Of a stretch of DNA of 64,000 nt, positions 29,494 to 52,191 are shown piece by piece. Source of the DNA: Candidatus Peregrinibacteria bacterium (GTDB taxonomy: Bacteria; Patescibacteriota; Gracilibacteria; UBA1369); contig OY970195.1 in NCBI GenBank assembly GCA_963708185.1, forward strand, positions 544,001 through 608,000, in the 5' to 3' direction. A program made the position numbers and the translations under genes. Positions within the stretch are counted from its first letter, which is position 1, and each line of letters starts with the position of its first letter. The notes beneath the pieces were generated by a model. That model made no database searches. It saw only the letters and a list, made by a program, of their open reading frames with translations, and was not told the origin of the DNA.

Positions 29494-29517
29494 AAAAAAA
29501 AGAACGCCGAAGCGTTT
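29494..29517 (-). terminator. Intrinsic terminator of cassette A
   Basis: Minus strand AACGC-TTCG-GCGTT followed by C and T8. Confidence 0.65.
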
Positions 29518-29586
29518 GAACTGAGCGCACGGCGCGAAGGCGTAAGCGTGTGGCTTTGCCACCGCTGGAGCGCGTTTAAAAAGAGA

Positions 29587-31089
29587 AAAACTCGCAGAAG
29601 TGTAAATCCCGGTCCGAAGAGGAGGAGGACGACCGCCGGTTTGAAAGGGGGGTCGGGATCACATGGATCCTGCAGTACCGCGTCGAGCGATACCGTTCCT
29701 CCGTCCTCTATCGGACGTGGGAAAGGTTATTCCCCCGCCGCTCTATGAGAGCGGCGGGGTACTGTTGTTGTTAATGGGTGAATGCTGCTTCAAGTCCGAC
29801 GGAATCGATCCGACGGACGAGCAGCGGTTGTTCCTCACTGCACGACGGCTGCGCACGCGATCTGAGACTGGCTGTCTCCGACCGCCTCGTTGTCGATCAA
29901 CGAGTTGTTGTTGGCCGTACCGCGATCGATGAACTCGGACGAGCAGGACCCGGGGAGGCAGTTGCGGAGGTCCGCAGCCGCGTCCTGGAGGCCCTGCAAC
30001 CCAGCCACGTAGCTGAGGTTGTCCGGGTTCTGCCCGTGGTTCGCGGCCAACACGCTCTTCAGCGGGTTGTACCACTCGCACGGGTGATCGCCCGAGCAGG
30101 TGAGGACGTTGTTCGCACCGTACAGGACGGCGCAAACCACGGTCGTCCCGTCAGACGAGCTGACGATGACGGTCTGGCCGGGGGTGAACGAGCCGTCCGT
30201 GGTGAGCGAGGCGTCGACCCAGCCGAGCGTGCTGCTCGACAGGGACGGCTTCCACGTCACGTCCGTGCCACCCGAGCTGTTCGGGACGCAGGTCCCGCTC
30301 GAGCAGTAGTAGCCGCTCGAGCAGGCCGGGGTGCAGCTTCCGCTGCCGTTGGGAACGCACACGCCGTTTTCGCACGTGGTGCCGGATCCGCAGCTGTTGT
30401 TGCAGTTGCCGGAGCCGGAGACGCACTGCCCGTTCGAGCAGTAGGTTCCCGACCCGCAGCTTCCGCCGCAGGTGTCGCTGCCGGACCCGTTGCCGCCGGG
30501 TACGCAGTACCCGTTGTTGCAGATCGTTCCCGTTCCGCAGGTCACGGAACAGGAGCCGGTCGCCGGGCGGCAGGTGGCGGGAGACGAACTGCTGTCGCAG
30601 TACGTGCCCCCATCGCACATGTCGTTGCACGGATCGTTGCCGCTGAACTGGCACTTGTCGGTGAGCGTGTTGCAGACGGCGCCGTCGTGGCAAATGCCGT
30701 CGCATGCCGTGTTGCTTCCGCCGCCCGTACCGCTGCACGCGGGATCGCCGTTCAAACAATACGGTTGGTCGTTGGACGACCCGCCGCAGCCGACGGCCGC
30801 GAGCGCGGTGACGAGGGTGACGAAGATGGCGACACTGAGCTTCAGGTTGGTCTTGGTCATGACTTGTTTCTCCAAACTGGGCTGAGGGCTTTGGGCCCCC
30901 CGAGGAATTTTGGGCTGTAGGGCCCTGGGTAGCACCACCATGGTGCGCCCCCGGTCCCTACTTCCTCGAAAGTTAGGGCCCGAATCCGACTGCTTTGCTG
31001 GCTGCGTCTATCTTCCACAAACGCAAAAACAAACAGGTTCGGACCCTGACTTTCTTGTTGAATAACCATTAAAATCTTCTGCGAGTTTT
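29587..31089. repeat. 14-bp inverted repeat enclosing cassette A
   Basis: AAAACTCGCAGAAG (29587-29600) is the reverse complement of CTTCTGCGAGTTTT (31076-31089). Confidence 0.85.
29835..30860 (-). CDS. Cys-rich repeat lipoprotein, myxobacterial style (cassette A)
   Basis: Lipobox LAAVGC; repeats C..TCG.GT.C.NG.CV; SD GGAGA before ATG. Confidence 0.8.
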   Translation of the reverse strand: MTKTNLKLSVAIFVTLVTALAAVGCGGSSNDQPYCLNGDPACSGTGGGSNTACDGICHDGAVCNTLTDKCQFSGNDPCNDMCDGGTYCDSSSSPATCRPATGSCSVTCGTGTICNNGYCVPGGNGSGSDTCGGSCGSGTYCSNGQCVSGSGNCNNSCGSGTTCENGVCVPNGSGSCTPACSSGYYCSSGTCVPNSSGGTDVTWKPSLSSSTLGWVDASLTTDGSFTPGQTVIVSSSDGTTVVCAVLYGANNVLTCSGDHPCEWYNPLKSVLAANHGQNPDNLSYVAGLQGLQDAAADLRNCLPGSCSSEFIDRGTANNNSLIDNEAVGDSQSQIACAAVVQ

Positions 31090-31176
31090 CAAAGAACTGT
31101 GCTGATGCACCGCTTGCGAAAAGACGCAAAAATACATCAGGTCACGAATGATACTATATTTTTGCTGTTTTGTCAA
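31086..31176 (-). promoter_or_regulatory. sigma70 promoter and boxA-like element of cassette A
   Basis: TTGACA (31176-31171)-N17-TATCAT; GTTCTTTGAAAA at 31097-31086. Confidence 0.75.
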
Positions 31177-31332
31177 TACTCCTGAGAACAAAAATATCAT
31201 ACGAATTCGTCCGGTTTTCAGGCCGGAAAATGATAATGTTTTCAAGGGTTTTCCATTACAAAAAAACCGCTGTCCCGAGTCAAAAACCGGAACAGCGGTC
31301 AAATCGCTCGTTCACCAGGTAAATTGGAAAAA

Positions 31333-32196
31333 TTAATGGGTTTCCACGATGCCGTCACTGGGAACGTCAGCGCAGTGGATGGCGACGTCCGTGTCTGCTA
31401 TCGGATCGTTTTCCTGCCAGCTCTGGTTGGAGCCCGCGGCGCGCCAGACAAAAGCGTTCGCCGGGCGGTATTGTTGAGGGGTCGTTCGGTAGCTGATGAG
31501 CTGCCCGGCCGCGTCTTTTGCGGCCTGTTGTGATGTTAAGTATGCCAAATCACCCGGGCTGTGGCCGGTTTGAGCCGCCAGAAAATTCGATTCAACATCC
31601 CACCATTCCCCGCTGCCGTTCATGGTTAAAATCGTGCCGCTGCCGTATCCGACAAAACAGACTGTCGCCGGGGTTTCGGTTTGATGAAACCAGACCGTGT
31701 TTCCCAAAGGGTAATTTGCTCCACCGTTGTTGATGGTCTCTATCCAGCCGTTTCCGGAACCTGCGTGCGCATTCTGCCAGGTGACTCCTGCAAAGGTATC
31801 ATGGGAAACCGGATCACATTTTTTGGTGTCGGGATTGCAGACCGTTCCTTTTCCGCAAAGATTGTCGCAAGGATCGTTGTTAGTGTCGGGAACACAGTGT
31901 TTTGTGGCTTCATCACAGTGTGTTCCACTGCCGCAATTATCACCGCAGACGTTCATTCCGGCATCGGAACCACCGTCTCCCAAGCTGTAAGGACCGTCAT
32001 CGGATCCGCCGCATCCCTGGGAAAGCAGCCCCATGCTGATACCCGCAGCCGCAAGAAATTTAAGTACCGCTCCGCGGGCCTGATGACGTTTTGACGTAAA
32101 GTTTGGCGTCGAAACTCCGCTTGTTGCCGCAGATTCAGGATGAGGGATCGCATCCGGCCGTGAAAAAACCGCTTCAGCCTGTTGTGGGTGAGACAT
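31333..32196 (-). CDS. Cys-rich lipoprotein paralog of cassette A gene, in resident-genome style
   Basis: LLSQGC lipobox, two Cys repeats, C-terminal domain alignable to 29835-30860; no SD. Confidence 0.75.
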   Translation of the reverse strand: MSHPQQAEAVFSRPDAIPHPESAATSGVSTPNFTSKRHQARGAVLKFLAAAGISMGLLSQGCGGSDDGPYSLGDGGSDAGMNVCGDNCGSGTHCDEATKHCVPDTNNDPCDNLCGKGTVCNPDTKKCDPVSHDTFAGVTWQNAHAGSGNGWIETINNGGANYPLGNTVWFHQTETPATVCFVGYGSGTILTMNGSGEWWDVESNFLAAQTGHSPGDLAYLTSQQAAKDAAGQLISYRTTPQQYRPANAFVWRAAGSNQSWQENDPIADTDVAIHCADVPSDGIVETH

Positions 32197-51078: not shown

Positions 51079-51161
51079 GCTCTTTCACTTTTGAGGATTA
51101 TCTTTCTCCAAGAGGAGCGTTTTTTCGTCATACCTCCTCCGTGTTTGAGGAGCTCCACGCA

Positions 51162-51229
51162 TTGACAAATTTGATAATTTATGGTATACTCCTCAAGCTT
51201 TTACTGCGCATAATTTTTGCTCTTTGACA
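51162..51229 (+). promoter_or_regulatory. sigma70 promoter and boxA-like element of cassette C
   Basis: TTGACA-N17-TATACT (51162-51190); TGCTCTTTGACA at 51218-51229. Confidence 0.75.
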
Positions 51230-51298
51230 TTCCGTTCAAGCAGAGAGGGACTTGCTGACAATGTGGTTTTCCAAAGCCAACATTGACGGCAGATCTCC

Positions 51299-52124
51299 TC
51301 TCTGTTTTTCACCAACACTTTTCGGAGCGGCTCTGCCGTTTCCATGAAGTTTGCAAATTTTGCGGTACCTAAGGGGCCGCGGAGGATACAGTCATGAAAA
51401 ATCTGATGTCGATGGTTGTGACGGTTTTCGCTGCTCTTTTCGTTATCGGGGCGCTTGGAATCGGTTCGTTGGGGTGTGACAATCCCAAGGACCAGGACCG
51501 GACGTCCCAGGACGACAAGATCACCCCGGCCCAGCAACAGGCTGTGGACCGGTACATGCAACAGGAAGGCCGTCCAGGGTTCAGGTCTTCCGATCCCAGC
51601 TGGAGCGATCGCGCAAGCTATCGCTACCATCAAGCTGCCGATGCGGTGCATTCGGGTGCGGTCACCTTCGGACGATTCGTCGCGATGGTGGTGTTCCACG
51701 TTCTGATGCTCCTTATTCCCCTGCTGGTCATCAGCTTGATCCCCGGCTTTGCGGCCGGAAAGTTCGAGATGTCGATCGAAGGGGCGATCCTGGTGGCTGC
51801 GGGCGTTGTTCTGCTCATGGCCAACTGGATCGGTGTCCTCAACCTGCAGTTCTGGGTCTGGGCATGCCTCATCGTTCCTGGTGGAGCACTCTTTGTCGTC
51901 TCCTTCTTCGCGAAAGAAGGGGCGTGGAAGATTCTGCTCGTCATGGGGCCACCGGTGCTCATGGTGCTCTTGGGATTGCTCCGCATCGTCGACGCCTACA
52001 TGTCGGCACTCGTTACCGGCAGTCTCTTGGCTATCGTGGGCGGGGTTGTCGCAGTCTACTACATCGCCGAAGGCGATGAGAAGGAGCACGCACACGGTTA
52101 ACACGGTTAGGTGAAGAACAGAGA
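51299..52124. repeat. 15-bp inverted repeat (one G-U pair) enclosing cassette C
   Basis: TCTCTGTTTTTCACC (51299-51313) pairs with GGTGAAGAACAGAGA (52110-52124). Confidence 0.75.
51394..52101 (+). CDS. Polytopic membrane protein with N-terminal lipoprotein signal (cassette C)
   Basis: GSLGC lipobox, about five TM helices; SD GGAGG; GC-rich codons. Confidence 0.75.
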   Translation: MKNLMSMVVTVFAALFVIGALGIGSLGCDNPKDQDRTSQDDKITPAQQQAVDRYMQQEGRPGFRSSDPSWSDRASYRYHQAADAVHSGAVTFGRFVAMVVFHVLMLLIPLLVISLIPGFAAGKFEMSIEGAILVAAGVVLLMANWIGVLNLQFWVWACLIVPGGALFVVSFFAKEGAWKILLVMGPPVLMVLLGLLRIVDAYMSALVTGSLLAIVGGVVAVYYIAEGDEKEHAHG

Positions 52125-52191
52125 AAGGGGTGCCATCACGGTTATTCGTTCGGTCCGCAAGGATCCGTCCGAAAACCAGGCACCCCTTTTT
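52124..52191 (+). terminator. Terminator-like structure of cassette C
   Basis: AAAGGGGTGCC...GGCACCCCTTTTT with branched loop. Confidence 0.6.

Follow-up and report, generated by a model that had tools for sequence, protein, structure and literature searches.

Can protein-coding genes of a bacterium be framed in the way in which its ribosomal RNA (rRNA) precursors are framed? The question is raised by a stretch of 64,000 nucleotides (nt) from a Candidatus Peregrinibacteria bacterium (assembly GCA_963708185.1, contig OY970195.1), hereafter called the window, which takes up positions 544001-608000 of the genome; the latter is a single contig of 1.437 Mb with a G+C content of 49.8%. A preliminary description of the window had picked out three units, cassettes A (29494-31176, minus strand), B (32314-37015, minus strand) and C (51162-52191, plus strand), in which a promoter, a boxA-like motif, a leader arm, one or two open reading frames (ORFs), a trailer arm complementary to the leader arm and a terminator follow one another. 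Judged from the genomes compared here, the RNA architecture is real, is conserved and recurs, and it combines two known elements. On balance, we read the cassettes as dedicated expression frames for abundant envelope proteins or other structural proteins, built on the plan of the organism's own rRNA units and closed by a stem whose formation would be assisted by boxA and the Nus factors.

All parts of this layout, from the promoters and boxA-like motifs through the arms and ORFs to the terminators, could be located in the three units (Table 1). The preliminary description had put the complementary arms at 14 to 16 nt; we found 15, 16 and 15 nt in A, B and C, respectively. As it had also stated, the arm sequences differ among the cassettes and each arm pairs with its own partner, which was seen both by comparing the arms and by scoring leaders against trailers. 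Its placement of the leader arm directly after boxA holds for A and B, in which the arm begins inside boxA, but not for C, whose geometry is unlike that of the other two, with the leader arm 78 nt 3' of the motif. In whole-transcript minimum-energy folds, the closing stem was recovered with 15 of 15 arm pairs in A and with 15 of 16 in B, where it spans 4.4 kb of a 4.67-kb fold. The terminator of A was identified by a scan, and those of B and C were identified by eye; the latter two are absent from the scan list because their long loops exceed the rules of the scan.

The relatives used for comparison were congeneric genomes (G002, G003 and G004 among them) and 201 genomes from across the order. 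The cassette motifs agree with both of the consensus sequences for which binding of NusB has been shown, UGCUCUUUAACA in Escherichia coli and AUGAUCUUUGAAA in Bacillus subtilis (according to the part of PMC13753749 available to us), and the C orthologue in G004 carries TGCTCTTTAACA, identical to the E. coli consensus. In A, the hairpin that precedes boxA has one compensatory change, from T-A to C-G, in G003. The long 5' untranslated region (UTR) of B contains many conserved helices (160 predicted pairs, 9 of them with a compensatory change), and a comparison of this region with Rfam gave no match even at an E value of up to 1.

The genome's own rRNA units follow the same plan. The genes for 16S rRNA (372254-373755) and 23S rRNA (377947-381062) form separate transcription units, each with its own promoter, a boxA reading TGTTCTTTAACA and a leader arm that begins within boxA and pairs with a trailer. 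The cassette motifs closely resemble this boxA. In the 16S leader, a hairpin stands 5' of boxA, in the same order as in the cassettes; a hairpin at this position, that of boxB, is present in A, in 16S, and in cassette D and the second-family leaders described below, and B has upstream hairpins. By this comparison, the likeness between the cassettes and the rRNA leaders is clear. Within the region 371990-381300 of the genome, the 16S and 23S units lie about 4.2 kb apart, with ORFs between them. In the accessible parts of the cited work, the leader-trailer helix of rRNA is described as essential for 30S formation (PMC10250234), and the Nus complex, whose tethering role is documented for rRNA, is described as promoting leader-trailer pairing and co-transcriptional processing (PMC10250234; bioRxiv 10.64898/2026.03.17.712431). 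The genome encodes a SuhB-family protein, and its nusB gene (667595-667969) adjoins rnc (666818-667477), both on the minus strand, an adjacency that is suggestive given the leader-trailer architecture.

The layout recurs outside the window. A scan of promoter-linked boxA sites yielded three extra cassettes, D at 388 kb, E at 256 kb and F at 902 kb of the genome, and further ones were found in related genomes. Cassette D is 464 nt long, encodes a membrane ORF of 48 amino acids (aa) and has a 17-bp stem with 2 G-U pairs. Its whole-transcript fold contained 17 of 17 arm pairs, with a z-score of -10.3 (0 of 100 shuffles were as good), and the hairpin 5' of boxA appeared in both the minimum-energy and the centroid folds. 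E and F are of the C type, with boxA, a CAGAGAG...CTCTCTG hairpin, the arm, the ORF and a trailer abutting the terminator hairpin. Their stems are weak, that of E having 15 positions with one U-U and one G-U, and that of F having 12 bp with 2 G-U, all 12 of which are found in its minimum-energy fold. In every one of the six cassettes, both arms fall within UTR sequence: the leader arm follows the predicted start and precedes the first ORF, and the trailer arm follows the last stop codon and precedes the terminator. The boxA is located about 130 to 530 nt 5' of the start codon. C, E and F have the trailer directly adjoining the terminator hairpin; the two are separated by 20 nt in D and by about 70 to 85 nt in A and B. 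The leader arm takes in the GAAAA of boxA in A, B and D. These three leaders and those of the second family read (G/A)(T/A)TCTTTGAAAA; the motif of C, E and F is TCTTTGACA or CTCTTTAACA. Other sites with a promoter and boxA (965078, 1033758, 1403715, 328876 and 47537) were without a convincing trailer.

Counting this genome, the frame is conserved in 3 genomes of the genus for A, in 4 for B, and in 3 each for C, D and F. Conservation together with covariation of the arms was clearest in helix B, which has 16, 16, 17 and 18 bp in four species and spans 4.06 to 4.36 kb; four of its columns carry compensatory changes (CG/TA, GC/AT, GC/TA/TG and GC/CG), and there are two U-G wobbles in addition. 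Helix F shows one change from C-G to U-A, and helices C and D show only wobble variation, save for one A-C in D of G002. A tally of helices on the sense strand covered 20 instances, namely, the six cassettes, their orthologues and the three members of the second family. All 20 instances pair, with 294 Watson-Crick pairs, 24 G-U, 2 A-C and 1 other. When each column was counted once, by hand, the internal positions gave about 15 G-U versus 2 A-C; a strand-symmetric DNA model would give such counts with a probability of about 0.001, a value somewhat inflated because the scoring favours G-U. The bias toward G-U on the sense strand argues for pairing in the messenger RNA (mRNA), not in DNA, and selection on the pairing appears to act at the RNA level. 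A closing stem formed by the RNA is thus, in our judgment, very probable. The motif is constrained as well: TCTTTG lies outside the stem and is unpaired, yet TCTTTGAAAA is invariant in 10 of 10 type-1 instances (all 3 A orthologues, 4 of B and 3 of D).

Conservation is a property of the frames; the ORFs inside them diverge or are exchanged. Between species, the 5' UTR of B is 65-71% identical, and its two ORFs are 48-53% and 56-62% identical. The cargo of D consists of one small ORF in G000, includes an extra lipoprotein gene in G004 and has a different second small ORF in G002. The acidic protein of F varies from 127 aa to more than 200 aa across species. The cargo is also restricted to the genus, P0002 being found in 3 of 60 relatives and P0006 in 3 of 200, one of these doubtful at an E value of 0.005. 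None of the ORFs of cassettes A to C scored above a Pfam cut-off.

A comparable architecture was found beyond the genus, in three genomes (G047, G114 and G098) that belong to one genus of a second family, f13. In each, a promoter is followed by a hairpin, boxA and a conserved leader; the leader arm, about 105 nt 3' of boxA, pairs with a trailer beyond a variable cargo of 0.5 to 2 kb. The stems have 15 bp, all perfect, in G047, 21 bp with 4 G-U in G114 and 18 bp with 3 G-U in G098; all 7 non-Watson-Crick positions are thus G-U, with no mismatch. The f13 arm contains GAGGAG, which resembles a Shine-Dalgarno sequence, whereas the arms in the original genus do not cover the ribosome-binding site; the f13 arm may therefore also touch ribosome binding. 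No terminator was visible after the trailer in G047.

How such a frame might work can be outlined as follows. The consensus promoter would fire, and the nascent leader would expose the short hairpin and boxA. NusB and S10 would then settle on boxA and, together with NusA, NusG and SuhB, would modify RNA polymerase and tether the 5' leader to it. The trailer arm, emerging 0.35 to 4.4 kb later and before the terminator, would meet the leader arm and form a closing stem of 12 to 18 bp. This stem would hold the 5' and 3' UTRs together and protect the message, and it may define processing. In types A, B and D, in which arm and boxA overlap, pairing may in addition push the Nus factors off and thereby let the terminator act. 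We consider the link to Nus likely. A bolder version, which we put forward tentatively and regard as rather unlikely, is that the machinery of rRNA maturation has been turned into an mRNA platform, with a leader carried by Nus, a stem that is cut by RNase III or locked, long-lived messages with protected ends for the envelope proteins of highest abundance, and a stable socket for swappable, fast-evolving cargo.

Several observations weigh against reading the cassettes as Nus-assisted frames, and some of them concern chance. The genome contains 113 perfect inverted repeats of at least 14 nt with a spacing of 300 to 8000 nt. With a loose helix threshold, about 12% of the motif sites and about 12% of the control sites passed, without enrichment. 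When a 60-nt leader was compared with 9 kb, A scored 17.3, next to a background 95th percentile of 17.1; B scored 19.0, at about the 1% level. For the specificity of the leaders, 140-nt leaders were scored against 527 regions upstream of terminators. The strict terminator finder that supplied these regions overlooked the cognate terminators of A, C, D, E and F and served only as a null set. The number of null regions scoring at least as high as the own trailer was 13 for E and 13 for F; it was 2 for A, 1 for B (its own region) and 0 for both C and D, and among the six trailers each leader scored highest with its own. A scan based on RNAduplex gave inflated energies and was dropped. Since bare inverted repeats of such a size are common, it is placement and conservation that carry the case. 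The suspicion that enclosing repeats might be commonplace is thus borne out for the bare repeats but not for repeats in conjunction with a motif and a promoter. The genome contains 62 TCTTTGA[AC]A sites. A perfect downstream complement of 14 nt or more within 8 kb exists for A and B alone, the others reaching at most 12 nt, and only 4 of the sites bear a promoter, A and B among them. Taken alone, the arms do not go beyond chance; what stands out is this conjunction of motif, promoter and arm.

A further point against this reading is that the pattern of a promoter followed by TCTTTGAAAA occurred in 17 of the 201 genomes across the order versus 11, by our own count, for a reversed control, so that the pattern alone is not enriched. 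Its 13 matches outside the genus comprised one 16S leader, one site before a transfer-messenger RNA (tmRNA) gene, five sites within coding sequence, the three sites with a trailer, and single sites in L031 (excluded from the trailer comparison, since the locus was not extended), G134 and G094. In G134 and G094, boxA leads into secreted or S-layer-like ORFs without a trailer complement. Cassette E was not found by DNA search in four congeners. Mismatches occur in helix D of G002 (A-C) and in helix F of G003 (C-A). Of the 15 arm pairs of C, 6 are present in its minimum-energy fold, along with 3 adjacent pairs that stack on the local hairpin; the fold of E contains 8 of 15. In C, E and F, the arm is 78 to 99 nt from boxA and competes with a local hairpin. 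The sample consists of four related species and three in the second family, and these relatives are non-independent. The promoters and the starts and ends of the transcripts are predictions from sequence.

Further points of this kind concern the partners of the stem. The rRNA stems have about 27 to 45 bp, compared with 12 to 18 bp for the cassette stems in the genus. Stem energies are -27 to -36 kcal/mol for A, B and D, -31 to -51 kcal/mol for C, and -62 and -41 kcal/mol for the rRNA units; the helix score of the rRNA stem is 28.9. Substrates of RNase III are long duplexes of about two helical turns. The shorter stems of the cassettes therefore argue against a typical RNase III stalk, and excision by this enzyme seems doubtful. 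Formation of circular RNA is unsupported. No Rho protein scored above the cut-off in the genome (best match, 48 bits versus a cut-off of 509). There would then be no obvious termination for boxA to suppress, which makes antitermination in the classical sense doubtful, and the role of boxA, if it works here, would more likely be that of a chaperone or tether than an anti-Rho one. Finally, the boxA in the E. coli suhB mRNA represses, rather than boosts, expression, as the accessible part of that study describes it (PMC5725501, Baniulyte et al. 2017).

If the closing stem is real, it could still work independently of Nus and control the access of RNases or translation; the boxA-like motif would then be the site of another protein or a mere piece of conserved leader. 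Excerpts of two studies describe such stems, of about 14 bp, between the UTRs of one mRNA: in hbs, which likewise encodes an abundant protein, a 14-bp interaction of the 5' and 3' UTRs modulates cleavage by RNase Y (PMC5737220), and in icaR the 3' UTR pairs with the Shine-Dalgarno region and creates an RNase III substrate (PMC3868564). The cassette stems, at 12 to 18 bp, are similar in length, their arms are about 75 to 110 nt away from boxA in C, E, F and the second family, and GAGGAG is part of the second-family arm. However, hbs and icaR are single genes without a repeated frame and without boxA, and the icaR arm covers the Shine-Dalgarno sequence, unlike the arms of this genus. A stem with no use for Nus also leaves the invariance of the unpaired TCTTTG to be explained, together with a motif that equals the NusB-binding boxA, resembles that of the organism's own rRNA leaders, occurs in six of six cassettes and follows a hairpin as it does in those leaders. 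We therefore regard a Nus-independent stem as unlikely, though it is the most probable of the alternatives.

Another possibility is that the stem is mainly a termination device, in which pairing of trailer and leader frees the polymerase of its modification or resets it, or else alters the shape of the terminator region, and transcription would thereby end cleanly with the cassette. The trailer is found beside the terminator, the GAAAA of boxA is part of the arm in A, B and D, and the cassettes are tightly packed, with the next promoter near. But the arm stands off boxA in C, E and F, G047 is without a visible terminator after its trailer, and the same stem in the rRNA units serves a different, known purpose. 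Such a device appears improbable as the main role. Still less plausible are arms that act as DNA, as inverted repeats for a site-specific invertase that would turn the coding segment around relative to a fixed promoter and so subject surface proteins to phase variation. Most of the cargo consists of surface lipoproteins, inverted repeats of 14 to 17 bp flank the segments, and two large serine recombinases and two tyrosine recombinases are encoded in the genome. These recombinase genes are far from every cassette, however, the nearest lying at 722, 1024, 1380 and 1414 kb, and the arms differ among cassettes, which leaves no common recombinase site. In addition, the excess of G-U over A-C on the sense strand is unexpected for a DNA site, the ORFs are in the orientation of the promoter in 20 of 20 instances, and the rRNA units have the same layout. 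Chance complementarity beside conserved regulatory sequences has in its favour the 113 repeats, the controls that pass the loose threshold equally and the score of A at the 95th percentile, but it is hardly credible in view of recurrence in six cassettes, the specificity for the own trailer, compensatory changes that preserve the pairing and recurrence in a second family with different arms.

Frames assisted by Nus would be most like an rRNA operon leader, with which they share a strong promoter, a hairpin, boxA and an arm at or near boxA that pairs with a trailer beyond the cargo; they differ from it in carrying translated ORFs, in stems of 12 to 18 bp and in a terminator that follows directly. 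Leader signals in RNA or DNA also make polymerase processive through long operons for envelope components in the RfaH/ops, LoaP and EAR RNA systems, which differ from the cassettes in using other signals and factors and in having no known leader-trailer closure. Closer in the motif are the boxA elements before protein genes and clustered regularly interspaced short palindromic repeat (CRISPR) arrays (suhB, S10 and a ParE-like toxin; PMC5725501), where boxA in the 5' UTR of an mRNA is recognised by Nus factors; there, as far as the accessible part of that paper goes, boxA is near the start codon, translation is repressed and no trailer complement is described. A literature search of limited depth, covering papers in part, turned up no report of boxA with a leader-trailer stem around protein genes. 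boxA and Nus are regarded as devices of rRNA (and phages), the few known mRNA cases being repressive, and the bacterial mRNAs known to have long-range 5'-3' pairing come from isolated genes. If the proposed reading is true, the RNA chaperone function of Nus, the joining of distant ends, would also be used for mRNAs and would persist without Rho. It would also mean modular, high-level expression of rapidly evolving surface proteins in uncultured bacteria with small genomes. The frame would be a compact natural design for stabilising long transcripts, and the 464-nt cassette D would be a simple non-ribosomal substrate that makes the Nus tethering model testable.

Table 1. Predicted features of cassettes A, B and C, with positions in the window.
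Feature	Positions	Strand	Remarks
A promoter, TTGACA, 17 nt, TATCAT	31148..31176	-	11/12 consensus positions; kept in G003 and G004
A hairpin immediately 5' of boxA, boxB-like position	31102..31140	-	CTGATGYAT...GTGCRTCAG
A boxA-like motif GTTCTTTGAAAA	31086..31097	-	matches B. subtilis boxA consensus (PMC13753749, part available)
A leader arm, overlapping 3' end of boxA	31076..31090	-	14 nt perfect (31076-31089), 15 with terminal G-U
A structured 5' UTR, conserved	30861..31075	-	mean column identity 68%, 3 genomes
A ORF P0001, 341-aa Cys-rich lipoprotein with CGxGTxC repeats	29835..30860	-	signal peptide with lipobox; without Pfam family
A strong G+C hairpin in 3' UTR	29733..29759	-	12 pairs, 10 of them G-C; palindrome listed by the scan on the plus strand
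A trailer arm	29586..29600	-	perfect part 29587-29600; kept in G003 (16 bp) and G004 (15 bp)
A intrinsic terminator, AACGCTTCGGCGTT and T run	29494..29516	-	scan placed hairpin at 29516-29503
B promoter, TTGACA, 18 nt, TATAAT	36986..37015	-	12/12 consensus positions; invariant in 4 genomes
B leader hairpin 5' of boxA, conserved	36851..36950	-	20-nt repeat, 90% complementary; helix kept in 4 genomes
B boxA-like motif GATCTTTGAAAA	36801..36812	-	TCTTTGAAAAT invariant in 4 genomes
B leader arm AATCCGGTTCATGAAA	36787..36802	-	16 nt perfect; starts within last bases of boxA
B long structured 5' UTR, conserved	36277..36786	-	about 700 nt from predicted start
B ORF1 P0002, 379-aa secreted protein	35137..36276	-	without Pfam family; relatives in the genus only, 32-38% identity
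B ORF2 P0003, 782-aa Cys/Gly/Ser-rich lipoprotein	32548..34896	-	one weak MopE-motif match below Pfam cut-off
B trailer arm TTTCATGAACCGGATT	32427..32442	-	covaries with leader arm in 4 genomes
B terminator-like hairpin and T run	32314..32356	-	by eye; strict finder: +4455, free energy -25.2
C promoter, TTGACA, 17 nt, TATACT, upstream TG	51162..51190	+	11/12 consensus positions
C boxA-like motif TGCTCTTTGACA	51218..51229	+	sequence
C local leader hairpin, CAGAGAGG ... CCTCTCTG	51238..51307	+	repeat search, folding
C leader arm TCTCTGTTTTTCACC	51299..51313	+	15 nt, one U-G; overlaps 3' strand of local hairpin
C ORF P0004, 235-aa lipoprotein or membrane protein	51394..52101	+	without Pfam family above cut-off
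C trailer arm GGTGAAGAACAGAGA	52110..52124	+	abuts terminator stem; kept in G004 (17 bp) and G002 (16 bp)
C terminator, GGGGTGCC ... GGCACCCC and T run	52121..52196	+	inverted repeat; by eye

Some further observations concern the cassettes and their cargo. Between the terminator of B and the promoter of A lies P0005 (31333-32286, minus strand), a paralogue of the A lipoprotein for which neither a separate promoter nor a separate boxA could be recognised; in G003, the A promoter directly follows the B trailer. The B leader (36277-36990, minus strand) contains a possible ORF of 27 codons, which was rejected as a real gene: it is missing in G002, and the region holds a covarying stem. For P0002, a protein-atlas comparison gave only leads below threshold (0.86-0.87), to beta-barrel-like outer-membrane proteins, and a metagenome search with its alignment gave no further relatives. 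A metagenome search with a DNA pattern for the B arm gave 2 matches, neither of them a relative. A foreign origin of the G+C-rich ORFs was considered and dismissed. The third-position G+C of P0003, the sole cassette ORF in that table, is 0.72 compared with a genome mean of 0.585, which is high and unexceptional, as 63 of 1209 ORFs reach 0.70. The high G+C of the cassette ORFs is due to their content of Gly, Ser, Cys and Ala. Among known RNA families, only 2 transfer RNAs (tRNAs) matched in the window, none matched at 29300-37200 with an E value of up to 1, and only a tRNA matched around D, E and the 965-kb site.

Downstream of C, a consensus promoter (52210-52238, plus strand; 11/12 positions, upstream TG) drives a putative zinc metallopeptidase-like gene (52360-53244, plus strand), the leader of which contains CCTTTCGAAAA, loosely boxA-like only. 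Another type of leader was seen at 455700-457300 of the genome (minus strand), where two tandem genes for Gly-rich lipoproteins each have a consensus promoter and then a leader, GCTCTTTTTGCTTTTGTGARCCGCAAA, that is nearly the same in both; arms pairing leader with trailer were not seen there. Elsewhere in the order, the boxA leader of G134 (L051, minus strand of the locus) precedes two large ORFs, the first with an S-layer-homology-like N terminus, and a trailer complement was not found within 6.5 kb. The tmRNA gene of G139 (L034, 1565-1987), a genome from a different family within the order, has a consensus promoter and a boxA, GGTCTTTGAAAA, 13 nt to its 5' side. At 721430-728839 of the genome, long inverted repeats of 78 nt and 221 nt surround a large serine recombinase gene, and this region is probably a mobile element. 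Within the window, a perfect, purine-rich inverted repeat of 23 nt, AAAGAAAAGAAGGAGAAGAAAGA, is present at 6238-6260 and 8638-8660, the two copies being 2.4 kb apart.

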